DNA of 64,000 nt from positions 8,370,001-8,434,000 of the forward strand of contig CM069160.1 of the NCBI GenBank assembly GCA_035221665.1. The letters run 5' to 3'. Both the position numbers and the translations under genes were made by a program. This stretch comes from Okamejei kenojei. Lineage: Eukaryota. The notes beneath the pieces were generated by a model. That model made no database searches, was not told the origin of the DNA, and saw only the letters and a list, made by a program, of their open reading frames with translations. Shown one piece after another: positions 4,297 to 55,071 of this stretch. The first letter of the stretch is position 1. Each line of letters opens with the position of its first letter.

Positions 4297-6452
4297 TCAA
4301 TCACATGAGAGGAATAAGGTCAGTATCATGTGATATTCCGCCTAACCTCATTTGGGACTGGTGTATTTCCAGAAATATCTGGGTCTCAGCTATCTACCTG
4401 CCAGGTAGATAAAATGTGGTGGCAGACAACAGGTCACGGAAATTTAATGACCACATAGAATGGATGCTAAATCCTGATGTTGTTAAAATGATTGTCAGCC
4501 TCTATGGTTTGCCAGATATTGATCTGTTTGCATCCAGGCTAAATCAGCCATGGTATTGTCAATCTGGAGCTGAACATGTAAATTATTCATTGGTGAACAA
4601 TAAGCTTTTAATCCATAGAATGCCCAAGCAATTCTAAGTAATTTATACCTAAATACATTTTGTGGGAACCAGATCCAGGAGCAGTAGCGGTGGATGCATT
4701 CTCGCTACATTGGGGACGTACGTTCTTTTACGATTTTCCCCCATTCTGCCTCATTAGGCAATGCCTCACCAAAATAGAGCAGAACTCTGCCTCAGGCATT
4801 TTGGTGGTTCCGGACTGGCCTACACAGCCATGGTTCCCATTGGTGCTGAGAATGATGACAGCCATTCATGGCTAACCCCAGCTGCAGTAATTTGTTGGTG
4901 CATCCAGTAACAGGAGAAAGTCATCCGTTACATGATCGTATTAATTTGTTAATCTGCAGGTTCTGATCAGACCGTTCCAAGGGCTTGGACTGTCGAGTAG
5001 GACCATGGATGTGATAACTGCTGCTTGGAGAGATAGCACTAAAAATCAATATGTGTCTCATATTAAGAAATGGGAGATGTTTTGCTTGCAGTCAGATATA
5101 TCTTATCATACTGCAAGCATACCGGATGTATTGGAGTTCCTTGCTACATTGCATTTTGATGAACACTCGAGCTATAGTGCCATTAATAGTGCTTGGAGTA
5201 CTTTGTCCTCCTATTTAGGGCAGTTTTCAGAACAACAATCTATCGGGTCTCATCCATTTGTATCCCGATTCACAAGAACCCTCCTAATCCTAGATATACA
5301 GAAATCTGGGATGTTAGTATAGTTCTCACACTGCTTCGGCAATGGGCTCCAATTACGTCACTGTCTTTTCAGAAGTTAACACTTAAAGTGGTTATGCTCA
5401 TGGCGCTAGTATCAGCGCAACAAGTTCATACATTGCAAAAGCTACGATTAGATAGCATGTACTTTTCTGCAGATAACATTACGTTTTATCTGTATTTAAT
5501 CAAACAAAGCAGGCCAGGAATGGTCGGAACCAAAGTAAGCTTTAAAGCATACCCCGTTGACTAAACGTTATGAGTAGTCAAGCACCTGAGTCAATATATC
5601 GAGGTAACTAAGAGTCTCAGAGGCTCTAAGACAGCAATGCTCATCAGCAATAAAAAAACCTCATAAGAAGGTGTCAGTACAAACTATTTCTAGATGGTTA
5701 AAACAGGTTTTGGATTGTGCTGGAGTAGACACTTGTGTTTAAATCTCACTCCACCAGGGTGGCATCAACATCTGCAGCGAAGGCACAGGACGTGCCTCTA
5801 GACCAAATCCTCAGGGCCGCAGGAAGGTCTAAGGAGGCGGCCTTCTCCAAATTTTATGATAAACCTGTCCTGACAGTGCAAGGTTTTGGGCATGCTGTTT
5901 TGGGTTCGGTTTGATTTATTTTTCCTTTCTAAATTTTATTTGTAATTTCCCCCTGGGATAGAGGGGTTATTACTGTTTTGTTTGTTATTATTATTAAAAT
6001 GATTATTGGATAATTCGAAGCAATGTTCAATACATTATTTATTCACTACTGTGTCAACTGAAGCAGTGTGTCGTATGGAATTGCTCTACGGCGTGAAATC
6101 ACAGAGCTTTGAAATCTTCACGTAGTCATTCACGTGACTCCGAAGTAAAATAGTAAGATTAAACGAGAACTTACCAGTTTGAAGTTTGATTTTTATTTTA
6201 TGAGGAGTTACGATGAGGGATTACTTGCCCTCCGCTCCCGGCCCTCATAATCACAAAGATCATCTGGTAGTTCTAGTCTTCTGAGTCTTACTATATCACT
6301 TCAGCTATAGTTTCTGTGTTTTCACGCCACTGCTTTGAAGTATGACGCGCATACATTTAGCGGGGTTTCTTCACTTAATCCCTCATCGTAACTCCTCATA
6401 AACTAAAGATCAAACTTCAAACTGGTAAGTTATCATTTAATCTTAAACTATT
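4297..6452 (+). mobile_element. 5'-truncated DIRS1-type tyrosine-recombinase retrotransposon (RNase H end, MTase-like domain, YR, ICR, right terminus)
   Basis: Collinear with 45650-47733. Motifs DLFASRLN, FPPF, VPDWPTQPW and the YR LMALVSAQ and HSTR. ICR at 6116-6227 is complementary to the right terminus at 6370-6452. Multiple stops and frameshifts. Confidence 0.9.
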
Positions 6453-12810: not shown

Positions 12811-13463
12811 AAAAGAGGTCGTTGAGGCAAGTACCATTTCAGCATTGAAATGACACTTGGACAGGTAGATAAGTGGGAAAGGTTCTGAGGAATAAGGGCC
12901 AAACACAAGCAAATGGGACTAGTTCAGATGGAACATCTTGGCCAGAATGGACGAGATGGGCCGCAGAGCCTGTTACTGTGCTGTATGACTCCATAAGATT
13001 AAAACATCAAACTTCAAAATTAAATTCTGAGTGAAATGTAACAAAAAGTTGAAACATTGCTAAAAGAGTTTGTTGCAAAGTAGCAGAAGACTCAGCAACC
13101 AGTCACTACAATGGAGGCACACTAAGCTTGATGAATAGGAAGGAGCTGCAAATGCTGGTTTAAACTGAAGATAGACACAAACAGCTGGAGTAACTCAGCG
13201 GGTCAGGCAACATCTCTGGAGAAAATGAATAGGCGACATTTCGGGTGGAGACCCTTCTTGATGAGGTATGCAGCCACTCATCATTGTAACAGGTAGAAGC
13301 TTCATCTAGTATTCGGGTTAGGACCAGATGTTCGTCTGGAAAGGAGAAATGAGAGGAGATTGGATCAGAAATGAGAAGAGAGTTTGTCACATCATCGAGT
13401 CTTAGTGAAGGAGTTTGCGCACTCGCTCACCTGTTATCACACCTGGCCTCTCATTGTTCATCT

Positions 13464-13549
13464 CTACAATGCTCCAACGATCATCACAAGCGTAGCCATG
13501 AGCACCAGCATGGAACTAGCTCCAAATGCCTCATGTGGCCCACCAACAC
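13464..13549 (-). CDS. Candidate exon 5 of the MHC class I gene: GPI-signal-like hydrophobic C-terminus and stop
   Basis: Unique, non-repeat sequence with acceptor tttgcttgctgggcAG. In phase 1 it reads GVGGPHEAFGASSMLVLMATLVMIVGAL*. A strong donor CAG|GTGAGC lies 33 nt after the stop (exon end 13431). I found no other phase-compatible hydrophobic exon between 21141 and here. Confidence 0.68.
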
Positions 13550-16500
13550 CTGCCCAGCAAGCAAATACAGTAGAAATTAGGCAAAGTACATAGATCATGT
13601 GATAGGAGCAGAATTGGGCCATTCAGCCCATCAAGTCTACTCTGCCATGGTTGCTCTATCTCTCCCTCCTAACCCAATTCTGCCTTCTCCCCATAACTTC
13701 TGAAACCTGTACTAATCAAGAATCTATCTATCTGCCTTCAATATATCCACTGGTGGCCTCCACAGCCTTCTGTGGCAAAACATTACTCAGAGTTGCCACA
13801 CTCTTTATATGTCTTAGGATCATACAGCATGGAAAACAAACACCTTGCCCTAACTCTTTGGTCTAGTTAGTGTGGTTTATTGTCACGTGTACTGAGGTAA
13901 AGTGAAAACTCATCCTTGCCAACATATGATGCCCCATCTCAGCTAATCCTATTTGCCCATGTATCAGTCCAAGTATCTTAAATGCTGTTATAGTACCTGC
14001 CACAACTACCTCCTCTGGCATTTCGTTCCATGTACCCACCACCCTCAAATTCCCTCAGTTTCCTATTACATCTTGTCCCTCTCACCTTAAACATACACCC
14101 TCTGGTTCTTGATTCCCCTTTCCTAGATAAAAGACTGGGCATTCACTCTATCTATTCCCCTCATTTGTTCACCTCTATAAGATCACCCCTCAGACTCCTG
14201 TGCTCTAAGAAGTTCTAGCCTGCCTAACTTCTCCCGATGCTCAAACTTTTACAGGTAAGAAGCCGAAGCTCTCCCGAAGCTCAAACTTTTACAGGTAACA
14301 TCGCAGGTCAGGCAGCATCTCTGGAGAAAAGGAATAAGTGATGCTTCGGGTCAAGACCCTAATTCAGACCCTCCCCATGCTCAGTCTCTTGAGTCCTAGC
14401 AGCATCCTTGTATATCTTCTCTGCACTCATTCCATCTTAATGAAATCCTTGTTATGGCAGGGTGACTAAACCTGAACACAATACTCCAACTGTGGCCTCA
14501 CAAAATTCTTGTACAAATGTAACGTAACGTCTCAACTTCTATCTTTAATACCATGCCTGATGAAGCTCAATGTACCACAAGCTTTCTTTACTGCCCTAAA
14601 TACCTTTTTAATGCCAGTGTCATGGAACTCTGTACCTGTACTCCAAGATTCCTCTGCTCTATAATGCACTCCAGGACCCTGCCAATGATGGCACTGGAGG
14701 GGATGCAGGTGAGATTTACAGAGACTGAGTAAATTAGCCATAGAGTCATCCAGTCCAGAAAAAGACCCTTTGGCCCAGTTCGTTCTTGCTGACCAAGATG
14801 ACCCAGTTGCCCATGTCAGGAATATTTGAATAGGCTGTGGTTCTTTAGTTTATTTTTAGTTTAGAGATACAGCCATCTCTGCACATTAACACTATCCTAC
14901 ACATACACTAGAGACAATTTACAATTTTACACTTAAACCAGCCAATTAACATACAAACTTTTACATCTTAGGAGTGTGGGAGGAAACCGAAGATCTATGA
15001 GAAAATCCATGCGATCACGGGGAGAACGTACAAACTCCATACAGACAACTCCCATAGTCAGAATCGAACCTGGGTCGCGGGCGCTGTAAGGCAGCAACTC
15101 TACCGCTGCACCACCGTTCCTCTCAGGAAGCTGAAGGTTGGATTAATATGGGACCTGACAGAGTAAATAGGGAAGACCTACTGTCCTCAACAGAGCAGTC
15201 AAAACAAAATGAAAGATTGGATGTGATCGGTAGGATTCGGAGGAGAGTTTGAAACATTTTCCACAAAGGTGTGAGGGGTCTGGAAATCATTGCAGGTAAA
15301 GTGTTATGGAGACAGGAACACTGACCACATTTAAACTGGCTCAATGTGTACTTGAATTGCTGATCTTTGAACCCAATGCTCGAAGATGGGGTGACCGATA
15401 AGATACTTTAGAACTTTATTCATCCCAGGAGGGAAATTCATCTGCCAACAGTCATAAAAACACAAAATATATGAAACATAAAATTAATGTGACGAGTGGA
15501 AAGGATTGGGGCTGTGCAAAGATTGGAGAGGGTGGAGGGTGGGTGGGAGTGGAGAGTCTGTCTCAGTCTACCCCACAACAGAAGAGGTCACAGCCTCAGA
15601 ATTAAAGGACGTTCTTTTAGGAAGGAGATGAGAAGGAATTTCTTTAGTCAGATGGTGGTGAATCTGTGGAATTATTTGCCACGTAGGGCTGTGGAGGCCA
15701 AGTCAGTGGATATTTGTAAGAGATAGATAAATTCTTGATTAGTAAGGCTGTCGGGTTATGGGGTGAAGGCAGTAGAATGGGATTAGGAGAGAGAGATAGA
15801 TCAGCCAGGATTGAAAGGTGGAGTAGACTTGATGGGCTGAATGGCCTAATTCTGCTCCTATTACTTATGAAATGAGTACAGGAGGAACTCAGCGGGTCAG
15901 TCAGCATCTGTGGAGGGAAATGGACAGGCAACGCTTCAAGTCAAAACTCATGCTTAGGATTACAGCATCTGAAGTTCTTTGTGTCCATTCCCTCCCCAGG
16001 TGCTGCCTGATCTGCTGAGTTACTCCAGCACATTGTGTCTTGTTCAGGATTCCGCTGCACTTCATTGTGTCTGACCCCAAACGCCACTTGTTCCATTTCC
16101 CTGCACTGGGGCAACCTGACCGCCTGAGTTTGTACAGCGCTTTCTGTTTTCCTCAACGTCCCAGCATTTGGAGCTTCTTGTTTTTGACTGCAAACAAAGG
16201 AGATCGTGATGGGCTTCAGGAAGTGAAGAGGCACAGTCTTTTACCCAGAGTAGGGGAATCAAGAACCAGAGGAGATCAGTTTAAGGTGAGAGGGGAAAGA
16301 TTTGAGGGGCAACTTTGAGGGGCAACGTTTTTGGACAGCAGGTGGTGGTTATGAAATGAGCGGCCAGAGGAGTAAGTTAGGCAGAAATTATCACAGCTTT
16401 TAAAAGACAGTTGGATAGGAAATGTTTAGAGGTATATGGACCAAACATGAGCAGGTGGGGATGGAGTTGCTGGCGCACCTTGGCCGGCATGGGCAAGCTG

Positions 16501-17519
16501 GGCTGAAGGGCCCGTTTCCGTGCTTTAGGACTATGACTGTAACTGTGGACATAAACAAGGTCTGTTGTACATGTAGCACTGTTCTCAAAGCAAGGTTGCT
16601 CAAGATTGCTGAAGAAAGGTCTCGACCCGGAACATCACCCATTCTCTCCAGAGATGCTGCCTGTCCCACTGAGTTACTCCAGCATTTGATGTCTATTTTA
16701 GATTTAAACCAGAATCTGCATTTCCTTCCTGCACAAGGTTTCTCAAGTGTTACCACAGACCATCCGAGACTAATGATGTAACTATGCCCATATTGTATCT
16801 CTATGTCTTACTGCATGGCAACCAACGCATCTACCATTCTTACTTCATAAACCTTTGAACAAAAATAGCCTCCAAGTTGCATCAGACGGGGGATTCCAGT
16901 AAAATAAAATCAAACTGGTTTTGCAACTGGCATCAGAATGTTGATGAAGGATATTTGATCTAGTTGCTCTGTTTCTCTCACCACAAATGAAACTTAATCT
17001 TCTGAATGTTTGCAGCACATTCTGCTTTTATTTTAGATTTCCAGAAGCTGCAGTTGTATTTAATTGATTTTGAACTCTGTTGAACCACCACATGTGTAAG
17101 GAAGGACATTGTTGATATATGCAGGTAACGCCAGGAAAATACAATGGGATCTTCAAACACAATGGTGGGGCTCCAGCGTGAACTGATATAATGGGAACAC
17201 TCATTTAACATACCAGTTTTGAGAAAGTTATCGATTTCTAATTAGGCTCTGTTGCAGCTGGTAGAGTCATAGCCGTAGAGCATGGAAACCGGCCCTTCAG
17301 CCCAACTTGCCCTTGCTAACCAAGATGCCCCATCTACACCCGTCCCACCTGCCCAGGTTTGGCATATAACCCTTTCCTACCCATGTGGCTATCCAAAGAT
17401 CTGTTATGGTACCTGCCCTCGCTGCCTCTTCTGGTAGTTCTTTCCATATACCTACCATCCCCTGTGTGAAAAAGTTGCTTCTCAAGTTCTATTTCTCTTT
17501 CTCAACTTAGAACCATTTA

Positions 17520-18508
17520 CAATACAATACAATATACAATATTTATTCATTGTCATTTGAACCTGAGAGAGTTAGATAGAGCTCTAGGGGCTAGTGCAGT
17601 CAAGGGATATGGGGAGAAGGCCGGCACGGGTTATTGATAGCGGACGATCAGCCATGATCACAATGAATGGCGGTGCTGGCTCGAAGGGCCGAATGGCCTC
17701 CTCCTGCACCTATTTTCTGTGTTTCTAACCTCAATGAGGCTCAAACGGAACTGTTTCTACAGCCATACAAACAGAACAATTTCTACAAGACACACAAATA
17801 ATTAAATTCACACAAACATCCATCACGGTGAATCTCCTCCTCACTGTGATGGAAGGCAAAATCTTTTCTCTCCCCTGTGTTCCATTTTTCTCCCGCTGTT
17901 AAAGCCCTAGGCGGGCGATGGTAAGTCCCACGGCCGTTGAGGCCGCGCTGGGCGATGTACGGCCCTGCTCCAGGTCTTAATGTCTCAATGTGGGAGCCCC
18001 CCGGAAGGCGTTGGCATGTCCCGCGACCGTTAAAGTCGCGCCGGGCGATGTACGCCCCCGCGACACAGGCGGGAGAGGTTTTGTTGCGGGAGCTCTGAAA
18101 AACGGTCTCCCACCAGGCCCCCGCAAGCTCCCGATGTTCCTTTCCACTGGGCCTGCGCCTGGAGCCTCCAAGCTCCGGAGTCGGGCCTCAGCAGCGAGCC
18201 ACCACCTTTCCCCACGCTCCGAGGCCGACCAGCCCCACGATGGTACGTAGTCCGCAGGCTTCACGACTGGAGCCCCAGGTCGTTCCGGTTGGAGGCCGCT
18301 CCACGGTACTAGGCTCCAACGACAACGGAGACCCGACAGGAAAAAGGTCGGGTCTCCCGTGCAGGGAAGAGATTTTAAAAGTTCCCCCCGCCCCCCACAT
18401 ATACATAGCCAAAAACAGTGTAAAAGAACACAACAACTACATTTCACTGGACAAAAAAAAAAGTCAGACAGACTGCAGGGTCCGCTGCAACATGAGTCAC
18501 GCCCCCAA
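17520..18508 (-). mobile_element. GC-rich non-autonomous retroelement family with microsatellite tail
   Basis: Related blocks at about 25620-26225, 39810-40560 and (partial) 42050-42440. The first three share a cactgtgatggaaggc-like motif and a (TTGTA)/(TGAA)/(TCTTG)-type tail. Confidence 0.5.
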
Positions 18509-21140
18509 CTGAATTTGTTCTTGATTCCCTTACTCTGGTTAAAAGACTATGCATTCGCCTTAACGTTTCCCCTCATGATCTGACACACCGCTGTAAGATC
18601 ACCCCTCTGCGTCCTGCGCTCTATGGAATAAAGTCCTAACCTGCCCCACCTCTCCCTGTAACAGGCCCCAAAGTCTTAGCAACATCCTCAGAAATCTTCT
18701 CAGTACTCATTCCAGCTTAATGACACCCTTCCTAGAGCAGGGTAACGGGGTGGAGCTGCTGTCTCAATGCGACAGCGACCCGGGTTCTATCCTGATACCT
18801 GGTGCCAACTGCGTGGAGTTTGCGCATGCTCCCTGTGACTGAGCGGGGTTCCTCCGGGTGCTCCGGTTTCGGCGAACATCCCAAAGACATGCGGGATTGC
18901 CCCCAGTGTGTAGGGAGTGGATGAGAAAGTGGATGGGATAACATAGAAACGACGTGAGTGAGTTTAGTTGAGCTTAGTGGAGTTTAGTATATTGTCTGAG
19001 AAAGTGAATGAATAGCTTTTTGATGCATGATAAAGTCTGATTAAAGATAGTCTGAGGATTGGAGGAATGAGTGATCTGTGGTCAGCGTGGACTTCGTAGG
19101 CAAAGGGCTTGTTTGCATGCTGTGTCTGCCAATCAATTAAAAATGTTAAGTATAACAATTAACTACAGATGCTGGTTTACACTGAAGATAGACACAAAAT
19201 ATTAGAGTAACTCAGCAGGACAGGCAACATCTCTGGAGAAAAGGAATAGGTGACGTTTCGGGTCGAGACACTTTATCAGATTGGTGTCAAAAATATTTCT
19301 TATTTTGGGCTGGATATTTGTCCGACAGCTCAAAGGTAAGTTAATGCTGGGTCTATAAGGATGTCTGTAGACATAATAGCAGTTTCTCAAATTATGACAG
19401 ATGTAGATTTGGTGGAGAGTGAGAATTTCTTTTCCCAGAATGGAAAGGACAAAGATTAGAGGGTATAGCTTTAAGGTGAGAGGGACAGGCTTTAAAGGAA
19501 GAAGAAGAAGGGTATCGGCCCGAAACGTTGCCTATCTCCTTCGCTCCATAGATGCTGCTGCACCTGCTGAGTTTCTCCAGCATTTTGTGTACCCCCAGGC
19601 TTTAAAGGAGATGTGCGGAGCATGTTTCTTTTTTAAACATAGGGGAGTGGTGGGTGCCTGGAATGCACAGCCAGGGGCTGTGGTGGTGAGGCAGATGTGA
19701 TAGAGGTATTTAGGAGGCTTTTATATCACCACATGGATATGCAGAAAATGGAGCTATGTGGTTCACATGCTGGCAGAGGAGTTTAACTGGCATTCAATAC
19801 GATAGAAGGTTATTTATCCCAGGAGGGAAATTGGTCTGCCAACAGTCATAAACACATCAAGATACATGAAACATGGAATTAAAGTGACTAGTGGAAACGA
19901 TTGTTGATGTTCAAAAATTGGGGATGGAGGGAGGAGGGGGGGAGGGGGGAGGGGAGTCAATCTACCTTACGACAGAAGTGGGAGGAGTTATAGTTTGGAA
20001 GCCACAGGGAAAAAAAGGATCTGTACTGCAAATTGGTGGAACTAGTCTGTTGCTGAAGGTACTTCTCAGGTTGACCAGTGTGTCACGGAGGGGGTGAGCT
20101 GTACTGTCCAAGATGCTTTGCAGTTTGAGGAACATCCCTCCAAGACCATCTCCCACGAATCCAACTCCACCCCCAGGATGGAGCCAGCCTTCCCAGCACA
20201 CGGCAGCGAAGAAGACGGCACTGGCCACCACCAATTGGTGGGACATCTGCAGCATCCTACTGCAGACGTTGAAGGAGCCTCATATTCAGCATGGACATTG
20301 AGGGCTGAGGGTCAGTTCCTGTACTATACTGTTCTATGTTTCATGTCATTCAAACCCCATGTGTTCCTTCCCCATAAAATACGGTGAATTCCCCAATATT
20401 GCCAGACTTCCACGAAAGATGCTCCGAGTCCACGGTGACCATCGGTCACCCGTTCACACTGAGCTCATAAGTCCTAGGAGCAGAATAAGGCCATTGGCCT
20501 ACCAAGTCTACTGTGCCATTCATTCATGGCTAATCTATCTTTCCCTCTTAACCCCATTCTCCTGCCTTCTCCCCATAACGCGTGATACGCTTACTCATCA
20601 AGAATCTGTCAATCTCCGCCTTTGTGAATATCCATTGATGATCTCCACAGCCGTTTGTGGCAATGAATTCCACAGATTCACCACCCTCTGACTAAAGACA
20701 TTCCTCCTCATCTCCTTTCTAAAGGCAAGTCCTTTTATTCTGAGGGTATGGCCTCTGGTCCTCAACTCTCCCACTAGTGGAAACATCCTCTCCACATTCA
20801 CTCTATCCAGACCTTTCACAATTCAGTACGTTTCAATGAGGTCCCCCCTCATCCATCTAAACTCCAGTGAGTACAGGCTCAGTGCCTTCAAACAATCATC
20901 ATATGTGAGCCCAATCATTCCTAGAATCTTCCTCGTAATACTTCTCTGGACCCTCTCCAACGGCTGCACATCCTTCTTCAGAGGAAGGGATGTTTCCTTA
21001 AAAATATCCATTGACTTGGCGTGCACGGCCTTCTGTGGCATTGAATTCCACAGATTCACCACCCTCCAACTAAAGAAATTCCTCATCTCCTTTCTACAAG
21101 CAGGAGTGAAGCAGATTGTGGACAACATACAGTGACTTAC

Positions 21141-21422
21141 CTCCACTAAGTGTCATTGTCAGCGTCTCTGACAGGCTGCTGTGCTGGACCTGACAGCTGT
21201 ACATCTTCGGATCTTGGCCGTGTAGCTCGATGAGCAGTTCCATCCTGTACGTGTCATCGTGGTTTGGTAGAAGGATCTCGTTTATGCCTTTGGAGACGGC
21301 CTGCCCATTTCTCAGCCAGGTGGCGTTGATGGCGCGGGGGTAAAAGGGAGTGATGACGCACCGGAGACCCTCGCCTGTGTCAGCCGTCAGCTCCCTTTTC
21401 AACACTGTCACCCCTGGAACAA
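21141..21422 (-). CDS. Non-classical MHC class I heavy chain, exon 4 (alpha3, Ig C1-set domain)
   Basis: Acceptor ctccccAG and donor G|GTAAGT, 282 nt. Encodes VVPGVTVLKR...LRCVITPFYPRAINATWLRNG...LLPNHDDTY...YSCQVQHSSL...LSG, with the C1-set motifs C..FYP..I..W and YxCxVxH. Confidence 0.95.
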
Positions 21423-21529
21423 CTGGGGAGGAATGGAGAGTAACGTCACTAATTTAGCACAGTGGACATTATCTTACAGATGGGGATTATGCACACCAGC
21501 CTTGCTGTCTCACCATTACACTCACAAAC

Positions 21530-22180
21530 TAGTTAGCTCGTTCATGAAACATGGTGGAGTACATGCCCCACTCAGTATCAATTGTGCCAAAGTAGAAATA
21601 GTTCAGATCTTCAAGTTCTTGGCATTAGTATTACCAACGATCTATCACAGACCAACCGCATTGATACAACAGCCAAGAAGGCATACCAAGGCCTTTACTA
21701 CCTTAGGAGACTCAGGAAATTTGGCATGACTCCAATGATTCTTACAATCCGCTGCAGAAGCCCCATACTGTCACTGCTTGGTTTGGGAACAGCTCTACCC
21801 AAGACCACAAAAGATTACAAAGAGTTGTAGATATAGCCCAGACCATCATGCAGTCCAGACTCCCCATCACTGACTCCATCTACATTTCACGCTGCCACAG
21901 AAAAGCAGCCAACACAATCAAAGACTTGTCCCACCCTCGGTCATTCCTTCTTCTCCCTGCTCCCGTCGGGCAAATGGTACAAAGGCTTGAAAGCGTGCAT
22001 CACCACCACCACCTCTGCTACCAGGTTTCTGAGCGGTCCTTCCATAAGCTGGAGTACTGTCCAATTCACCTCTACCCCATTGGATTCTGTCTCTTGGACT
22101 GATGAACTGTATCTTCCCCTTAGCACTATCTATTGTACTTGAGTTTAACTTTATTATATTTACATACAGTATAATCTGAT
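21530..22180 (+). mobile_element. Rex1/Babar-type LINE 3' fragment in MHC intron 3
   Basis: Degenerate translation FKFL.., KKAYQGLYYLRRLRKFG and IKDLSHP. Confidence 0.7.
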
Positions 22181-23234
22181 CTATCTCTCCATCCTCACCC
22201 CATTCTCCTGCCTTCTCCCCATAACCTCAGGCACCCTACTAATCACTGGAATTTAGAAGGATGAGAGGATATCTTGTAGAAACATATAAAATTATAAAAG
22301 GACTGGACAAGCTAGATGCAGGAAAAATGTTCCCAATGTTGGGGGAGTCCAGAACCAGGGGCCACAGTTTAAGAATAAGGAGCAAGCCATTTAGTACGGA
22401 GACGAGGAAACACTTTTTCTCACAGAGAGTTGTGAGTCTGTGGAATTCTCTGGATACTTTTAAGAGAGAGCTAGATAGGGCTCTTAATGATAGCGGAGTC
22501 AGGGGAGGCCATTTAAAACTGAGATGAGAAAAAAACGTTGTCACCCACAGAGTTATGAATTTGTGGAATTCTCTGCCACAGAAGGTAGTGGAGGCCAATT
22601 CACTGGATGAATTTAAAAAAGAGTTAGATAGAGCTCTAGGGGCTAGTGGAATCAAGGGGTATGTGGGAGAAGGCAATCACTGGTTACTGATTGTGGATGA
22701 TCAGCCATGATCACAATGAATGGCGGCGCTGGCTCAAAGGGCCAAATGGCCTCCTCCTGCACCTATTTTCTATAATTCAAATCAAAAAACTGTCTATCTC
22801 TGCATTTTTAAAAAGTCCACTGAATTGGCCTCTACAGCCTTCTGTGGCAAAGAATTCCACAGATTCACCACCCTCTGATTAAATACATTTCTCCTCATCT
22901 CATTCGTAAAACAATTCTGAGGCGGTGACTAGTCCTAGACTCTCCCACCAGTGGAAACATCCTCTCCATGTCCACTCTATCCAAACCTTTCACTGTTCTG
23001 CATGTTTCAATCAGGTCCCTCCTCATTCTTCTAAACTCCTGCGAGTACAAGCCCAGTGCTGGAAAATGGTGATCATAGATTAACCCACTCATTCCTGGGA
23101 TCAATTTTGTAAACCTCCTCTGGACTCTCTCAAGAGCCAGCACACGCCGAAAATTGCTCACAATTGACCAGCAAATCGCTTGCCATCCCAGGTCAAAAAT
23201 TCCCTCTTTGCCCCTGATCAGCAGACAGAATGTT

Positions 23235-24125
23235 AAATCCCTCACCAACCCAGATCAGGAACCATTACAATCCTGGACCAGGTTATCATTCACTGTCCAG
23301 AGAAGGAGATCTCTCACCGTCAGATCATAAGCTCCCTCACCATCCTAGATCATAGATCCCTCATTGTCCCAGATCAGAAGGCCTCTGTCAATTCTGGATC
23401 AGGATATCATTTACCGTCCAGACCGTGAGATTCCTCACTGTTCAGACCAGAAGATCCCTGACCACCAAGTCAGTGGATATATTTAAGGCAGTGATAGATA
23501 GATGTTCAAGAAGGAAGTGCAGATGCTGGAAAATCGAAGGTAGATAAAAGTGCTGGAGAAACTCAGTGGGTGCGGCAGCATCTATGGAGCGAAGGAAATA
23601 GGCAACGTTTCGGTAGAAAGGGTTCTCAATTCTGAATTTTGAAGAAGGGTTTCGGCATGAAACGTTGCCTATTTCCTTCGCTCCATGGACGCTGCTGCAC
23701 CCGCTGAGTTTCTCCAGCACTTTTGTCTACCAGTGATAGATAGATTCTCAATTAGTACGGGTGTCGGAGGTTATGGGGAGAAGGCAGCAGAATGGGGTTA
23801 GCAGGGAAAGATAGACCAGCCATGACTGAATGGCAGAGTAGACTTGATGGGCCGAATGGTCTAATTCTGCTCCTATCACTGATGATCTTGATCAGAAGCT
23901 CCCTCACCATCCGCGATTGGGAAATCGTCCCAGATCAGTGCTCCCTCACCATCATGGATGGGAGCTCCCTTGTTGTCTGGGTCAAGAGACACCTCACAGT
24001 CCCAGAGTGGAAGCTCCCTCACTACACTATATCGGAGCTCCCTCACCTCCCTGGATCAGAGCTTCCTCACTGCCCCAAATGGGTGCTCCCACACCTTCCC
24101 GGATCATAGCTCCCACTCCGTCACA
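23235..24125. repeat. Degenerate ~24-bp tandem repeat (cccagatcagaagctccctcacca-like), interrupted by a CR1/Penelope insert
   Basis: Visible recurring gatc..gagctccctcac units immediately 3' of the alpha2 donor. Confidence 0.6.
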
Positions 24126-24159
24126 CACAGGGGTTTAAGTACTGAGAAGTCCTACCTAC

Positions 24160-24429
24160 CTCTCCTCTCGAGTGCTGCGTCACCAAGCCGCAGAGCTTTC
24201 TGCAAGTCTGGAATGCAGCTGCTGGTCACTGCTTGAAGTACAGCATTATTAAAGAAAGTCTGTAGGTCCTGTGGATTGTTCAATAATGTAAGGATACCAG
24301 TGGCAGAACAGTTCGCTGCGACCAGATCACAGTCAATCTCACCGATGTCTTGGATGCCAAACTTTAGAAACAGATGGATCATATTTTCAGACTGTGTGCA
24401 GCCCCAAATCCCCTGGAAGTAGCTGATAT
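24160..24429 (-). CDS. Non-classical MHC class I heavy chain, exon 3 (alpha2 domain, divergent)
   Basis: Acceptor ccttacAG and donor G|GTAGGT, 270 nt, open, phase 1-1. Encodes DISYFQGIWGCTQSENMIHLFLKFGIQDIGEIDCDLVAANCSATGILTLLNNPQDLQTFFNNAVLQAVTSSCIPDLQKALRLGDAALERR. It has QxxxGC (C101), CxxxLxxxLxxG (C164) and the typical LERR end. Confidence 0.9.
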
Positions 24430-24989
24430 CTGTAAGGAACCAATTGTCATTAATGAGAAGCCATTCCCTATTGTAGATTGGTTATTGCATGTGAACCAAT
24501 CATAGTAGAGTAGCATCATTAACCCCACCTTACTGTATGCTTTATATTAACACCCACTTCGTACATTAAGTAGTCTTGGAAGCGGTAGTGATGAATTAAC
24601 AACTAACAACCTGCTGTACCGCTATACTATGTGTTACAATTAAAGATGACTTTAAACTCCAGGCCTGTGTAACATAATCATTTACACCTACCAAACACGG
24701 AAATGCGACACGCACTGTGTGACCACGAGATGCAGGGAGCAACAGACTGCAGTGAGGGAATGATGCTAGAGCCGGGGCTGAGGGTGGAGAGAATGCAGTG
24801 TTGTCGGTGGTGGTACAGCTCACAATGTCTCAAACGATCTGTGATCACGGTGAGCAAATGTGTACAGTCAGGGTGAGTGGGTACACAGGGGGATGATCAT
24901 GGCGAGGGGCTGTGTGTGCACTCACATCATTGTGTGCTAAGCAGGGGATCAAATAGGAGAGGGTGTACCGTGTATCATTGTGGGCAGAG

Positions 24990-25600
24990 CAGGGGATTAC
25001 AGCGAGAAGGTGTATTGTGGATCAGTGTGTGTATAGGGTAGGGTTTTACACTGAGAAGGTGTACTGTGGATCAGGGTGTGTATAGGGTAGGGGTTTACAG
25101 TGAGATGGTGAATTGTGGATCAGTGTGTGTATAGGGTAGGGGATTACAGTGAGATGGTGTACTGTGGATCAGGGTGTGTATAGGGTAGGGGTTTACAGTG
25201 AGATGGTGAATTGTGGATCAGTGTGTGTATAGGGTAGGGGATTACAGTGAGATGGTGTATTGTGGATCAGTGTGTGTATAGGGTAGGGGATTACAGTGAG
25301 ATGGTGAATTGTGGATCAGTGTGTGTATAGGGGAGGGGATTACAGTGAGAAGGTGTATTGTGGATCAGGGTTGTATAGGGTAGGGGATTACAGTGAGAAG
25401 GTGTATTGTGGATCAGTGTGTGTATAGGGTAGGGGATTACAGTGAGATGGTGTATTGTGGATCAGTGTGTGTATAGAGTAGGGGATTACATTGAGAAGGT
25501 GTACTGTGGATCAGGGTGTGTGTAGATTAGGGGATTACAGTGAGATGGTGCACTGTGGATCAGGGTGAGTATAGAGTAGGGGTTTACAAAGAGATGATGT
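24990..25600. repeat. 49-bp minisatellite in MHC intron 2
   Basis: Unit GGGGATTACAGTGAGATGGTGTATTGTGGATCAGTGTGTGTATAGGGTA, about 12 copies. Decayed copies extend to about 24840, 26235-26330 and 26830-27085. Confidence 0.9.
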
Positions 25601-27349: not shown

Positions 27350-27598
27350 CAAGCATTGGGCCAAATATCCTCAATTGTTCAGAGACAGTCTTGTGAATGG
27401 TGTCTGCGATCTGCTTCTGCCGTGTCCAGTATTCCGCCGTGAAGCCGTTCGCAATCCACTGCTGCCTGGGTGCCACTTCTTCGAGGGAGCTGTCGTAGTA
27501 ATCTATCTGCAGATCATCCAACATCCCAACCCTGGCGAAGGTTGGCAGGTCAGGAATGCTGAGGGAGTAGGTGGCGAAATATCTCAAGCTGTGGGAAT
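27350..27598 (-). CDS. Non-classical MHC class I heavy chain, exon 2 (alpha1 domain)
   Basis: Acceptor ttgctcAG and donor G|GTATGT, 249 nt, phase 1-1. Encodes DSHSLRYFATYSLSIPDLPTFARVGMLDDLQIDYYDSSLEEVAPRQQWIANGFTAEYWTRQKQIADTIHKTVSEQLRIFGPML, with the class I alpha1 hallmarks SHSLRYF, VGxLDD, YDS, PRxxW and EYW. Confidence 0.93.
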
Positions 27599-32903: not shown

Positions 32904-32979
32904 CTGCGTGGTCTCCCGACACAGGGCAGAGAGAAAAGACGGCGAACAGGAGTGATACAGGTACGTTGTAACTTTCCAT
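32904..32979 (-). CDS. Non-classical MHC class I heavy chain, exon 1 (signal peptide)
   Basis: ATG at 32979 in a strong Kozak context (GCCGCCGAGATGG). Encodes MESYNVPVSLLFAVFSLCPVSGDHA with a hydrophobic core. Ends in a phase-1 donor CAG|GTAAGA. Sits at the edge of a CpG-rich island. Confidence 0.85.
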
Positions 32980-42458: not shown

Positions 42459-45400
42459 ATTTTACTTCGGAGTCACGTGAGTGACTACGTGAAGGAGCCC
42501 CGCCAGGCGCGTGCGCATCATTACGTCCGCGCATGTCGCACTGAACGGGCTGGAGAGCGCAGCTCCACCAGCGGTAAGTAGAAACTTCACAGGTAAGTGG
42601 TTTTGAAAACTTTGCCTGGAAGTATTTAAACTCCGTCAAGCTGGCTCGAGCAGTCAGTAGGAGTCGGTGGTACGGAGCGGTCAGGTAGAAGAGTTCGCAG
42701 CAAGCGTGGGTCCAGCGATGCAGATTCACAAATTAGATCGGGTCGGCAGATTACAGAGGCAACGCCGGTTCTGAAACTGGGTGCCGTTTTACCGACAGCC
42801 GTTATACTAGATAGTGAACTTTCTACACCAGCTCCAGGGACTTAGGAGCCTGAGGCCACTGATAGCCATAGGAAGGCTAAAGGAAAGTCTATCAGAGCGG
42901 TTTTGTCAGACGAGTGTCAGAAGAAGAAGGAGACCCCTCCAGATAATAAAAGAATGTGGGGGAGGATGCAAAATATGGAGAAGATGCTCCAAACTTTGAT
43001 AAATCAAGGGTAAAAGGCCCCAGTGGTTCCCCAGACAGCTGCTCAAGAAACATAGAAACATAGAAACATAGAAATTAGGTGCAGGAGTAGGCTATTCAGC
43101 CCTTCGAGCCTGCACCGCCATTCAATATGATCATGGCTGATCATCCAACTCAGTATCCCGTACCTGCCTTCTCTCCATACCCTCTGATCCCCTTAGCCAC
43201 AAGGGCCACATCCAACTCACTCTTAAATATAGCCAATGAACTGGCCTCAACTACCCTCTGTGGCAGAGAGTTCCAGAGACTCACCACTCTCTGTGTGAAG
43301 AAAGTCTTTCTCATCTCGGTCTTAAAGGATTTCCCCCTTATCCTTAAGCTGTGACCCCTTGTCCTGGACTTCCCCAACATCGGGAACAATCTTCCTGCAT
43401 CTAGCCTGTCCAACCCCTTAAGACAGAAGGCCCATATCAAGAAGAATATGTGGAGTATCAGCAAGGGGATTTCCTTCCAGCGCCTTGTTTAGGACTGGAG
43501 GATGCCTCCCTACAGTATGACTTGGGAGAAGCAGGGCAGGATGAAGCTGACCCTGATTCTGGTGTCCCTGCTCACGTGCATACACCAGAGCACAAGAGCC
43601 ACGCTCCGGGTGTCCCGGAAATAGCAGTGAGTTTTGCTATTCCGGAGGGGACTGGTGAGGCAATGGACGAGTATCTTGCCAACAATATCAATTATTTAGT
43701 GTCTCACCAGCTCCAGCAAGCTATGATGCACGAGACTACTGGCAAATATAAGACACCTGTCAATTGTGCATCATTGAAAGTGCCCACGGTGAACCCAGCA
43801 ATCTGGGCACCCATGAGTCCTTCTATGAGGGGACAGGAGGTTCGGTATCGACACGTCCTCCAACTGGTGGCTGCAGCCCTTACTGCATTTGGCACAATGG
43901 TCCAAGGGACAATGATTACTCAAACTCAAAAAGATATGTTGGCTCTTTTATGCAATGCATTTTTTGAGGTAAATTGCATCAGGAAAATTGCCATTAGGCC
44001 AACACTCAATCAGAAATTTGCTGCTTTATGTAAGGCAACTAATGTACAAACGCCTGAATTCCTGTTTGGAGCAGACCTTGTCAAGCAAATTCGTGAAATT
44101 GATGATGAGGCAAAAACTATTGGTTTAATGAAGCCAACCATCTCACGGCCACCTATTCGAAAGCCTGGTTTAATGTACCGAAGGTCGGATCCAGGTGCTG
44201 GGCCCAGCAGGGGGAGGCCAGTGGGGCAACGAGTTTACCCACCAATACAGACCGGCTACAACCCCAATATGGGCAGACAACAGGCTTACAGACCAACTGG
44301 AGAGGTACAGGGAATTTTTGTTAACGATAAAGTTTCTGGTGGACAACCTCCTATTGGAGGTAGATTACAATTGTTTTATAATGAATGGTGCTGTATAACA
44401 TCTGATATGTTTATACTAAATACTGTATCAGGTTCTACCATTGGGTTTATCTCAGGGATAGATCCACCTCAACAGCACAAGCCTAATAAAATGTTAGTGT
44501 TTTCTGCTCCAGAGACTGAACAGGTAAACGAGATTAAGAATTTATGCCAAAAAGGAGTGATTGAGAAAGCCATTAATCATCCTCAACAATTTGTGTCTAA
44601 TATATTCCCCGGACCTAAAAAAGATGGGGGTTGTAGAGTAATTCTGGACCTCACTCACTTAAATTCTTCAGTTCTCTATAGGCATTTTAAAATGGACACC
44701 TTCGTTACTGCTAAACAGCTGGTATCACAGGACTGTTATATGGCAACTATTGATTTGCAAGATGCATATTATTCAGTGCCAATTCATGCTCATTATCGCG
44801 GGTACTTGAAATTTAATTGGATGGGACAGCTGTGGCAATACAAAGCATTGCCTAATAGATTAAGTTCAGCACCTAAGCTATTTACTAAATTGCTAAAAAA
44901 CCTGTGCTGGGGCTATTGAGGGCCCATAATCGCATTGTCATGGCTTATTTAGATGATATCTTAAGTATCAGCAACACTAAAGAGTCAGCTGAAGAGTCGG
45001 TTACAGCAACCAAAATATGTGTTTGAAACATTAGGGTTTTTGGCCCATCCAACTAAGTCCAAGTTACAGCCAACCCAAAATATTGAGTATTTGGGATTTC
45101 TTATTGATTCAGTTGATATGACAGTAACATTACCAACAGCCAAGGTTGTGGATATTGCTCATGTCTGTACTTGCCTCACACAAAAACTTTATCCCTCCAT
45201 CCGAGAAGTCCCTAAGGTCATTGGGAAATTGGTAGCAGCTTTCCCTGCAGCACAGTTCAGAACTTTGCATTATCAACATTTGCAAAGAGCAGAGAGCAAG
45301 CACTAAAAGAGCATGCAGGCCATTTTGATCGGGTTATGCAGTTACCAACCACAGCCCTAGCAGAATTGCAGTGGTGGATTGTTAATGTTAGTCAAGCTAC

Positions 45401-47733
45401 CAATAACATTTTGGTGCAAGAACCTTCAGTGATCTTACAGACTGATGTAAGCACTCTCGGATGGGGGGCTACGGACACCGAGTCTAGCTGTGGGGGTAGA
45501 TGGAATGAACAAGAAGGTTTGATTCTCCACACACAAGGAATCAATTATTTGGAATTATTGGGGGCATTTTATGGGTTAAAGGCATATTGCTCCACAATGA
45601 ATAATTTACACGTTCAACTCCAGATTGATAACACCACAGCAGTGGCATATATTAATCATATGGGAGGAGCAAGATCAGTATCATGTGATAACTTGGCTAA
45701 CCTCATGTGGCGTTGGTGTATTTCAAGGAACATCTGGGTTTCAGCCATCTATCTACCAGGTATAGGCAATGTGGTGGCAGACCATAGGTCGCAAAAGTTT
45801 AATGACAATATAGAATGGATGTTGAATTCTGAAATTTTTCAAACAATTGTCACTCGATTTGGGTTGCCAGATATCGATATGTTTGCATCCAGATTAAATC
45901 ACCAGTTGCCTAAATATGTTTCATGGGAGCCAGATCCAGGAGCAGTAGCCGTGGATGCATTCTCATTACATTGGGGGCACTCATTCTTTTATGCATTTCC
46001 TCCATTTTGTCTGATCATGAAATGCCTCACCAAAATAGAGCGTGACTCCGCCACAGGCGTTTTGGTGGTCCCAGATTGGCCAACACAACCATGGTTGCCA
46101 TTAGTACTCAGAATGATGGCTCAGCCATTCATGATGATTCCCAGCTGCAGTAATTTGTTGGTGCTTCCAGTTACAGGAGAAAGTTACCCATTACATGACC
46201 GTATTCATTTGTTGGTCTGCAGGTTCTGACCAGACCATTCCAGGGCCTTGGATTGTCGAACAGTACCATGGAGGTTATCACTCCAGCCTGGAAAAATAGC
46301 ACTCAAAAACAATATGTGGTTCACATAAAGAAATGGGAGATGTTCTGTGTACAATCCAATATATCTTATCATACTGCAAGCATATGTGATGTGTTGGAGT
46401 TCCTTGCTAAGTTGCATTTTGATGAGCACTTGAGTTATAGTGCCATTAACAGTGCTCGGAGTGCTTTGTCCTCCTATTTGAGGCAGTCTTGAGAACAACA
46501 ACCTATCGGGTCTCATCCGTTAGTATCCCGATTTATGAGTGGAATTTTAACAAAAACCCTCCTAAACCTAGATATACAGAAATCTGGGATATCAGTATAG
46601 TTCTCACACTGCTTCAGCAATGGGCTCCAATTACGTCATTATCTATGCAGAGATTAACTCTTAAAGTGGTTATGCTAATGGCGCTGGTTTCAGCACAACG
46701 TGTACAAACATTACAATTGTTACGAATAGATTGTATGCATTTGTCTGTAGATGACATTACATTTTATGTCTATGATTTAATCAAACAAAGCAGGCCAGGT
46801 ATGGCAGGAACCAAAGTGATGTTTAAAGCCTATCCTGTTGACCAAATGTTATGTGTAGTTAAACACTTAAGCCAATATATTGAGTTAACAAGGAGTCTCA
46901 GAGGTTCTGCGACAGGACTGCTCATTAGTCACAAAAAGCCATATAAAAGAGTGTCAGTACAAACTATTTCTAGATGGTTAAAACAGGTTCTCAATTATGC
47001 TGGAGTCGACACTCATGTATTTAAATCTCACTCCACCAGGGCGGCATCAATATCCGCGGCGAAGGCTCAGGACGTGCCGCTAGACCAAATCCTCGCGGCC
47101 GCAGGATGGTCTAGAGAATCAACATTTTCACAATTCTATGACAAACCTGTACAGACAGTGCCACGGTTTGGGCATGCTGTTTGGGTTCCATTTAATTCAT
47201 TTGCTTTGTTTTATATCATTGTTTGTAATTTCCCCCTGGGACAGAGGGGTTATTACTGTTTTTTTGTTATTATTAAAAATAGTTATTGAATAATTTGAAG
47301 CAATGTTCAATATATTATTTATTCACTACTGTGTCAACCGAAGCAGATTGTCGTATGGAGTGCATCTACGGCATGAAAACACAGAGCTTTGAAATCTTCA
47401 CGTAGTCACTCACGTGACTCCAAAGTAAAATAGTAAGATTAAATGAGAACTTACCAGTTTGAAGTTTGATCCTTATCTTATGAGGTGTTACGTTGAGGGA
47501 TTACGTGCCCTCCGCTCCCACCCTCATAATCTGAGAGATCATCTGGTAGCTCCAGTCTTCTTAAAGCCTTACTATGTTACTTCGGCTATTTGTTTTCTGT
47601 GTTTTCACGCCGCTGCTTTGAAGTATGACGCGCGTGCGCGTGGCGGGGCTTCTTCACGTAATCCCTCAACGTAACTCCTCATAAAATAAGGATCAAACTT
47701 CGAACTGGTAAGTTCTCATTTAATCTTACTATT
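42459..47733 (+). mobile_element. Near-complete DIRS1-type retrotransposon (gag, RT, RNase H, MTase-like domain, tyrosine recombinase)
   Basis: Gag-like/RT ORF 43450-44919 (DLQDAYY), YLDD at 44946-44957, RNase H plus MTase-like ORF 45336-46229 (TD..GWG, INYLEL, DNTTAV, DMFAS, FPPF), YR 46253-47289 (R..HSTR..GW..FY). It has ITRs, an ICR at 47396-47507 and ATT at both ends. Disabled by frameshifts. Confidence 0.95.
43045..43422 (-). mobile_element. CR1 3' fragment inserted into DIRS gag
   Basis: (AGAAACAT)n tail plus CR1 3' coding end, near-identical to 59577-59849. Confidence 0.9.
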
Positions 47734-48765: not shown

Positions 48766-50497
48766 ACTTTCAAACCTGTCTGTCTTTGGAGTGTGGGAGA
48801 AAACCTGAGATCTCGGAGGTTAATTAGTTGTTGTAAACTGCACCTAGTGTGTCAGGAGGCAGGACAATTTGGCCAGTGTTGATGAAAATGTAGGGAACAT
48901 AGAACAGTACAGCACAGGATCAGGCCTTTTGGCCCGCAACATCTGTGCTGTGCCAGATGAATCTAATGTGCCTTTCAAAAAGTCTCTTAAATGTCACAAT
49001 TGTATCTGGTCCCACGACCGCTCCTGGCAACATGTTTCAGACACCCACCATGCTCTGTGTAAAAAAAACCTTTAAACTTTCCTTAAAACTTTGCTCCTCT
49101 CCTTTCACTTAAAGCTATTCCCTCTAGTCTTTGACATCTCCGCTCCAGGAGAAAGGTTCTGACTCTCTACCCTATCCATGTCTCTCATTAGTAGATATAC
49201 TTCTATCAGGTCTCCCCCTCATTCTCTGGCATTCCAGAGAAAACAATCCAAGTTTTCCTAACCTCCTTATAGCTAGGTGTGTGGGAAGGAACTGCAAAAT
49301 GTTGGTCTGAATGGAAGATAGATATAAAATGCTGGAGTAACTCAGAACAGGCGGCGTCTCTGGGTAGAGGAATGGGTGACATTTTAGCCACGATCAGCCA
49401 TGATCACAATGAATGGCGCTGCTGGCTCGAAGGCCCGAATGGCCTCCTCCTGCACCTATTTTCTATGTTTCTAAGGCCGAAACCCTTCTTCAGACTAGTC
49501 AAAGGAAAAGGAAATGAGAGATGTAGACGGTGATCTAGAGTGATATAGAACAAATGAATAAAAGATATGCAAAAAAGTAACGATGATAAAGTAAACAGGG
49601 CCTTGTTAGGGGTTTATAGGTGAGAATGAGAAGTTGGTGTGACTTAGGTGAGGGAGAGTTGGAGCCTTCTGCACCCTCTCCAAAGTCTCCACATCCTGCC
49701 CGCGGGCTGAAGGGTCTGTTTCTGCGTGGCATCTCTCTGTAGTACCAAGGTGAGATGGTCGTAAGTGGGACGGAAGAACTGAGGAGAAAAATCAATTGTA
49801 GAAAATGAGAATAGTGGATGCAATGGTCTAATGGGGTTGTCCCTGCCTGAAGGTCCTGAGGAAAAGGTGCTGCATAGGTTTGGGCCTAGTTTAGACTTTG
49901 CTTGAGACTTTAGAGATGCAGTGCATAAACAGGCCCTTCGGCCCATTGAGTCTGCACCGACCAGCGATTACCCCGTACACCAGCGCTGTCCTACACACTC
50001 GGGACAATCTACAATGTTTTTTACCAAAGCCAATTAACTTACAAACCTGCACATCTTTCCATAGTTAGGATGGAACTTGAGTGCATGGCGCTGTAAGGTA
50101 GCAACTCTACTGCTGCACTGCTGTGCTGCCCAATTCTACAGAAGGTTTTTGTCGCCTGGCATTGAAGTCACGCTTGTCCAAACAGGCGGCAAGGTGGCAC
50201 AGGGTGAGTTGCTACCTCGCAGAACCAGAGACCAGGGTTCAATGTTATCTGAGTTGAGTTTGCATGGTCTTACAGTCACCAGACTCTCAGAGACAGTACT
50301 AGCAGGATCTCTGAAGATCATGGATAGGTAGACAAAAATGCTGGAGAAGCTCAGCAGGTGAGGCAGCATCCATGGAGCGAAGGAAATAGGCAACATTTCG
50401 GGCCAAAACCCTTCTTCAGACTCACCTCAGATAGGTGACGTTTTTTGGTTGAGACCCTTCTTCAGACAGGAAAGTGAGTCAGAAAAGATTCAAAAGA

Positions 50498-51562
50498 GTC
50501 TGAAGAAGGGTCTCGATCCGAAACGTCACCCATTCCTTCTCTCCAGAGATGCTGCCTGTCCTGCTGGGTTACTCCAGCTTTTTGTGTCTATCTTCGGTTT
50601 AAACCAGCATCTGCAATTCCTTCTTACACATTGTCCTCATTCTTCAGAGAACGGGGATTCCCCTCTCCCTCTATAGTTGAGACTCGCACCAGGGTCTCCT
50701 CCGTACCCCGCAACACTGCCCTCTCTCCCCATCCCCCCACTCACAACAAGGGCAGAGTCCCCTTGGTCCTCACCTTTCACCCCACCAGCCGGCACATACA
50801 ACACATAGTCCTCCGCCAGTTTCGCCACCTCCAACGTGACCCCACCACTTGCCACATCTTCCCATCTCCCCCCTTGTCTGCCTTCCACAAAGACCGCTCC
50901 CTCCGCAACTCCCTTGTCAATTCTTCCCTTCCCTCCCGCTCCACCCCTTCCCCAGGCACTTTCCCTTGCAACCGCAAGAGATGCTACACTTGTCCCTTCA
51001 CCTCCCCCCTCCACTCCTTTCAAGGACCCAAGCAGTGCTTCCTGGTCCGACAGAGGTTCACCTGCACCTCCGCCAACCTCATCTATTGCATCCGCTGCTC
51101 TAGATGCCAGCTGATCTATATCGGTGAGACCAAGCGGAGGCTTGCCAATCGTGTCGCCGAACACTTCCGCTCGGTCCGCAATAACCAACCCGACCTCCCG
51201 GTGGCTCAGCACTTCAACTCCCCCTCCCATTCCATATCCGACCTCTCTGTCCTGGGCCTCCTCCACAGCCAGAGTGAGCGACACCGCAAGCTGGAGGAAC
51301 AGCACCTCATATTCCGCTTGGGGAGTCTGCATCCTCTGGGCTTGAATATTGAATTCTCTCAATTCTGTTGACCCTTGCTGTCTCCTCCCCTTCCCACCTC
51401 TCCCTCAGCCCTCGGGCTCCTCCTCCTTTTTCCTTTCTTCCCCCCGCCTCCCCCCACCCCCTATCAGTCTGAAGAAGGGTTTTGGCCCGAAACTTTGCCT
51501 ATCTCCTTCGCTCCATAGATGCTGCTGCACCCGCTGAGTTTCTCCAGCCTTTTGTGTACCCC
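50498..51562 (+). mobile_element. Penelope-like element: GIY-YIG endonuclease ORF remnant between two direct terminal repeats
   Basis: ORF 50631-51371 with CxRxRCxTC and LIYCIRC..C..IYIGETKR.L..R..EH. Repeats carrying the CTGAAGA...GAAA core start at 50500 and 51469. Confidence 0.92.
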
Positions 51563-54690: not shown

Positions 54691-55071
54691 TACAGATTTG
54701 TAGGTTGATTGACGATACAAAATGTAAAATTGTCCCCAGTGCTTGTAGAGTGCTGTTAATGTGCGGAGATCACTGGTCAGTGTGGACCCGGTGGGCTGAA
54801 GGGCTTATTTCCGTGCTGCATCTCTAGACTAAAACTAAAACAAAAATTCGGTATTGTCTCCGGAGATCGTGGGTAGGTGATGTTCCAGTTTAGGACTCAT
54901 TCTTCAGACTGATTGCAGTGGGGGCAGTTAAGAATGTAGGAAAAGAGGAAGGGAAAAGAGGAAGATTGTGACCGGTAATTTAGTAATGGGTGATCACAGG
55001 CGAGGGGGTTGTCTGATAGGCAGAGACGAAAAGAATAGCGTAATCCCAAAAAGGATAAAGAGTTACGAATT

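Follow-up and report, generated by a model that had tools for sequence, protein, structure and literature searches.

A skate UFA gene with an additional cysteine pair in its alpha2 domain and a GPI-signal-like C-terminus

The skate gene and its place in the UFA lineage

A stretch of 64,000 nucleotides of Okamejei kenojei (GCA_035221665.1, contig CM069160.1, positions 8,370,001 to 8,434,000; the whole of it is referred to as the window) was analyzed, in which an initial annotation had described a remodelled alpha2 domain of a class I molecule of the major histocompatibility complex (MHC). The segment in question, 24429-24160 on the minus strand, is a complete alpha2 exon (270 nt, phase 1-1, open frame) with an AG acceptor just upstream and a GT donor just downstream. 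It belongs to the skate copy of UFA, an already described MHC class Ib lineage of sharks and rays. The host gene is an intact MHC class I gene, whose five coding exons combine into a 320-residue open frame with canonical splice sites; further class I exons were not found within the 64-kb window.

The shark nonclassical MHC class I molecule UFA (8GM8) was the best match in every PDB search, in one of which it scored 247 bits vs 128 for UGA and 85 for shark UAA (6LUP), and both sequence and fold place the skate protein nearer to nurse shark UFA than to UAA, UDA or UGA. In a tree with UDA and four teleost rows as outgroups, from which UAA, UBA, UCA, UEA, UGA and CD1 were left out, a clade of 29 rows including nurse shark UFA was obtained (support 100/98). 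The nearest proteins are those of the skates Amblyraja, Leucoraja and Rhinoraja. UFA was published as a CD1-like shark and ray lineage with suggested lipid binding and was placed in an MHC-Ib cluster with UDA and UEA; 8GM8 was released on 2024-11-27, and lipids were reported for UFA/UGA in a review, based on crystal structure and mass spectrometry. The skate gene is one more species for this named and crystallised lineage, and the novelty implied by the initial annotation is not supported; none of the traits is peculiar to this gene.

For transcript evidence, contigs of four runs (X1, X2, X8 and X9, which represent no more than three samples from a single study and are presumed to be RNA) were compared with positions 13200-24600, that is from alpha2 to exon 6. 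In a single X1 contig, alpha2, alpha3, exon 5 and the 3' non-coding exon are contiguous and the introns are gone, while contigs of X2, X8 and X9 span subsets of these junctions. The simplest reading is that the intron-free contigs represent spliced mRNA of the skate UFA gene, although they may stem from a very recent retrocopy. The features of the gene are as follows.

32904..32979, minus strand: exon 1, signal peptide; ATG at 32979, 88% identity to residues 1-25 of the Amblyraja ortholog, GT donor
27350..27598, minus strand: exon 2, alpha1, 249 nt; top PDB match 8GM8 (E 2.7e-19), AG/GT borders
24160..24429, minus strand: exon 3, alpha2; top PDB match 8GM8 (E 5.8e-10), joined to alpha3 in X1 and X8 contigs
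24398..24400, minus strand: Cys101 codon, canonical alpha2 disulfide (sequence and alignment)
24329..24331, minus strand: additional Cys at HLA position 126 (sequence and alignments)
24308..24310, minus strand: additional Cys at HLA position 133, middle of an N-C-S sequon (sequence and alignments)
24215..24217, minus strand: Cys164 codon, canonical alpha2 disulfide (sequence and alignment)
21141..21422, minus strand: exon 4, alpha3 Ig C1 domain; 92-93% identity to rajid orthologs, spliced in contigs
13431..13549, minus strand: exon 5, GPI-signal-like C-terminus (GPI, glycosylphosphatidylinositol), stop TAG at 13466-13464; X1, X2 and X9 contigs join it to alpha3
13204..13335, minus strand: exon 6, non-coding 3' exon, visible part only (far end at the edge of the compared stretch); X1 and X9 contigs, AG acceptor

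Contigs of other individuals carry variants, each single and at low depth: two adjacent changes in the alpha2 helix (24254 and 24259, T>A and F>L, HLA 150-151), M>I at 21202 in alpha3 and M>I at 13509 in the tail.

Nurse shark UFA (Ginglymostoma cirratum, 8GM8, P0025) shares with the skate protein the lineage, the C126/C133 pair, the short alpha1 end, the loss of anchors and the hydrophobic groove positions, and its platform superimposes on the model of the Amblyraja ortholog with a root-mean-square deviation of 2.2 A over 172 residues. Identity between the nurse shark and skate proteins is 30% in alpha2, 43% in alpha1 and 54% in alpha3. They differ at position 24 (R in the skate, M in 8GM8), in groove hydropathy (1.13 vs 1.73) and in the N-C-S sequon, which the skate protein has and 8GM8 does not share. 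The rajid orthologs (Amblyraja XP_032903622.1, Leucoraja XP_055521808.1) carry the annotation 'MHC class I-related gene protein-like' and share the cysteine pair, the N-C-S sequon and the tail with the skate protein, to which the Amblyraja ortholog is 84% identical overall; the skate protein has four additional residues in alpha3 and does not have their N177 sequon.

In Rhinoraja longicauda, one gene model (P0002, 809 aa) fuses a UDA-like class I gene with a UFA gene, which is probably an annotation artefact; since one model covers both, the two genes adjoin there. UFA has been described as single- or low-copy. Five UFA protein clusters each were observed in Hemitrygon akajei (P0004, P0015, P0019, P0021, P0023) and Mobula birostris (P0010, P0012, P0014, P0017, P0018), and annotated isoforms of Hemitrygon (P0030) and Hypanus (P0032) omit the entire alpha2 exon with the frame kept. 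The nearest matches beyond elasmobranchs are teleost class Ib proteins (P0033-P0036, from Conger, Synaphobranchus, Megalops and Anguilla), in which Y7 and Y59 are absent, the groove positions are hydrophobic (0.76-0.80) and the membrane tail is normal.

Loss of peptide anchors and the additional cysteine pair

The alpha2 exon encodes four cysteines, at alpha2 residues 10, 33, 40 and 71. To check the HLA numbering of the initial annotation, the alpha2 alignment of Verissimo 2023 (Supplemental File 10, PMC10751288) was used, in which, as far as its alpha2 rows are concerned, the UFA cysteines share columns with HLA-A2 C101, L126, W133 and C164. The numbering is therefore right: C101 and C164 are retained, and the additional cysteines lie at 126 and 133, as had been proposed. 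The replacements Y159 to A, W167 to D and Y171 to A also hold, as does the persistence of Y7 and Y59 in alpha1, where position 84 is M; alpha1 has a short C-terminal end, and Y84 and the N86 glycan site are lost. There is no W or K within 136-152, so that T143, K146 and W147, which had been called unrecognisable, are absent under either of two registers.

W147 is one of the residues that hold the peptide termini in classical molecules. From the full set (Y7, Y59, R/Y84, T143, K146, W147, Y159 and Y171), two of eight are retained, by which the protein does not qualify as UAA-type. The list was taken in part from PMC8236899, where Y159 and Y171 are the partners of Y7 and Y59 in the P1 network. 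The loss of R/Y84, T143, K146, W147, Y159, W167 and Y171 is lineage-wide: Y159 and Y171 are absent in all 27 UFA proteins, whereas Y7 is kept in 21 and Y59 in 24 of them.

The alpha2 helix had further been described as rich in L, F, V and A, and indeed L/F/V/A/I account for 17 of 40 residues at 136-175, compared with 11 of 41 in UDA. Residues 67, 155, 159 and 171 are all A in the skate protein, which would open rather than fill groove space. At the level of sequence, the skate protein thus has the CD1-type feature of a hydrophobic groove free of peptide anchors, and the earlier proposal of a groove suited to lipids or small molecules, or to no ligand, rather than peptides is supported by the hydrophobic residues at groove positions and the lost anchors.

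Two further observations concern the platform. HLA position 24, on the groove floor, is Arg or Lys in most batoid rows examined and hydrophobic in sharks; the basic side chain could serve to bind the head group of a lipid. Moreover, the platform diverges faster than alpha3 (82% identity to the Amblyraja ortholog in alpha1 and 78% in alpha2 vs 92% in alpha3), which might reflect diversifying selection on the platform.

In elasmobranchs, where a search for the spaced cysteine motif had been proposed as a check, the pair with six residues between is present in 23 of 29 aligned homologs, 8GM8 included, and it was also found in the Rhinoraja model, which is outside this alignment. With this distribution the pair is not a chance feature. 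Among the 26 rows of the alpha2 alignment in PMC10751288 the 126/133 pair occurs in two, both UFA; its use as a mark of UFA is our own reading of these rows and not a definition stated there. Shark UGA (9CH4) retains F126/W133 and lacks the pair.

The six homologs without the pair are five stingray paralogs and Heptranchias, and in five of the six both cysteines were lost jointly. The stingray paralogs form one clade (100/98) with a deletion over the second cysteine, and one of them (P0019) retains C126. UFA of Heptranchias perlo (P0026) has Tyr and Trp at 126 and 133, the ancestral type, and this independently supports the mapping of the two positions. A placement of Heptranchias as the sister group of the remaining UFA was not rejected (p-AU 0.289), and therefore retention and reversal of Tyr/Trp are indistinguishable.

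The hairpin register was taken from the secondary-structure strings of two AlphaFold models of the Amblyraja ortholog. In one model the strands comprise residues 113-118 and 123-126, with cysteines at 117 and 124, and the other is alike: the two cysteines are on opposing strands of one hairpin, one step from the loop. Such a position is a usual site for a cross-strand disulfide. The conservation of the pair, its joint loss and the modelled register support the second alpha2 disulfide that the initial annotation had predicted. The N-C-S sequon, also pointed out there, is present in the skate exon. It occurs in only three of 29 rows, all from rajid skates (Amblyraja and two Leucoraja-cluster rows), and is for this reason not part of the UFA lineage design.

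C-terminus, proposed function and alternatives

In the product of exon 5, small residues and a brief polar spacer lead into a hydrophobic stretch of about 15 residues that runs up to the stop, so that there is no cytoplasmic tail. This GPI-signal-like ending was found in 26 of 29 elasmobranch rows having a C-terminus; the exceptions are one isoform of Narcine, an incomplete model from Scyliorhinus and a second one from Chiloscyllium, and the nurse shark entry, an ectodomain that ends before this part, was left out of the count. In all four teleost controls a membrane span is followed by basic residues. On inspection, the skate protein has the signal peptide, small-residue site, spacer and hydrophobic tail of a GPI protein with nothing behind, and GPI anchoring is predicted. 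CD1 molecules (CD1a-d) have a transmembrane span and usually a cytoplasmic sorting tail, both of which are missing from skate UFA. The tail pattern agrees with the GPI signal as described in PMC5054108. GPI anchoring of UFA was not found in a literature search, though the primary UFA structure paper may report it. The class I fold offers precedents: Qa-2 (Q7/Q9) is a GPI-anchored class I relative (PMC6292030), and a GPI anchor together with a closed groove is known from some members of ULBP/RAET1 (PMC6769792). Both are unrelated to UFA by descent as far as tested; Qa-2 binds peptides, and ULBP/RAET1 proteins lack alpha3 and small ligands.

Taken together, it is quite probable that skate UFA is a nonclassical class I heavy chain with lipids in a CD1-like hydrophobic groove, a C126-C133 disulfide and a GPI anchor. 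With the peptide-terminus anchors mostly lost, the hydrophobic groove likely holds lipids in the manner of CD1. The C126-C133 disulfide would staple the strand 3-4 hairpin, replacing the packing of L126/W133 beneath the start of the alpha2 helix; the hairpin would be made rigid and, with the bulky Trp gone from the F-pocket end, room for acyl chains would arise. The heavy chain presumably pairs with beta2-microglobulin. As a cytoplasmic sorting tail is absent, UFA would take up its lipids within the secretory pathway or on the cell surface instead of in lysosomes, and it may show them to innate-like T or natural killer-type receptors.

UFA thus likely works like CD1, without a claim to membership in the CD1 family. 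Human CD1b and CD1d and chicken CD1 share with UFA the lack of peptide anchors, the hydrophobic groove and lipid ligands; UFA retains Y7/Y59, unlike CD1. In CD1b, a cysteine near the W133 column pairs with a helix cysteine. The human CD1 row of the alpha2 alignment in PMC10751288 has this cysteine near the W133 column, and C126 is absent from its CD1 rows. The authors judged the orthology of UFA and CD1 difficult to assess.

An unlikely alternative is a closed or empty groove. UFA would then be a surface signal that needs no ligand, in the manner of ULBP/RAET1, MIC or FcRn, and the additional disulfide would compensate for the missing ligand. Several points weigh for it: the platform fold ties with FcRn and ULBP6, the closed-groove ULBP/RAET1 members provide the GPI precedent, and the lower identity of alpha1/alpha2 (78-82%) than of alpha3 (92-93%) among skates would fit a receptor arms race. 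It is countered by the lipids that the review reports for UFA/UGA from crystal structure and mass spectrometry, and by the alanines at 67, 155, 159 and 171, which would give space instead of filling it. Binding of hydrophobic peptides or lipopeptides in the absence of terminal anchors, as in chicken YF1 or mouse Qa-2, appears distinctly less probable still. The retained Y7 and Y59 (21 and 24 of 27) and the peptide-loaded, GPI-anchored class Ib molecule Qa-2 (PMC6292030) speak for it, as does chicken YF1, whose entries rank 2-7 for the full-length model, but within 1 Z of classical BF2; the P1 network partners Y159 and Y171 (PMC8236899) are missing in 27 of 27, and the C-terminal anchors are likewise missing.

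We assign an equally small chance to the additional cysteines being free, or linking chains or other domains, instead of being bonded to each other. Their pairing is predicted from conservation and modelled register, and C126 stands alone in stingray paralog P0019. On the other hand, the cysteines face each other across the hairpin in both models, the six-residue spacing is fixed in 23 of 29 homologs, loss was joint in five of six exceptions, and the domain is extracellular. For a decaying pseudogene that lost its anchors by drift no support was found, and this explanation is refuted by the open 320-residue frame over five exons, the canonical splice sites, the spliced contigs that three samples from a single study yielded and the identical changes in shark and ray orthologs.

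Implications and other features of the window

UFA is of interest in that it may trace CD1-type lipid presentation back to the first jawed vertebrates. Should the GPI anchor prove real and not yet reported, it would limit the ways in which UFA can work: there would be no tail-driven endosomal routing, and a raft location and enzymatic shedding would be likely. What the additional disulfide does to ligand binding could be tested directly on paralogs that have the cysteine pair and paralogs that lack it. The specialist interest lies outside the alpha2 exon, in the lineage-wide GPI-like tail and the natural pair-less paralogs. More tentatively, and with less than even chances, the whole UFA lineage could be GPI-anchored, tail-less, CD1-like lipid-presenting class I with the hairpin disulfide as a switchable element. 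Most sharks and rays would have the disulfide fixed, a young clade of stingray paralogs would have lost it by a deletion that also took part of the hairpin, and the sevengill shark would show the ancestral Tyr/Trp in its place, a natural series for the change from a peptide to a lipid groove. The combination of a GPI anchor with a CD1-like lipid-presenting class I molecule and no cytoplasmic tail was not found in print.

The intron between alpha1 and alpha2 harbors a minisatellite with a 49-base unit in 12.5 copies (24991-25600). Long overlapping frames at 43405-47286 resemble, judged by motifs only, a retrotransposon of DIRS type with gag, reverse transcriptase, RNase H and tyrosine recombinase, and 4642-5800 is presumably a second, decayed copy of such an element, on the same basis. 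By motifs only as well, frames at 52648-54769 (minus strand) and 50478-51368 are assumed to comprise LINE-type reverse transcriptases and a GIY-YIG-like frame that belongs to a Penelope-type element.
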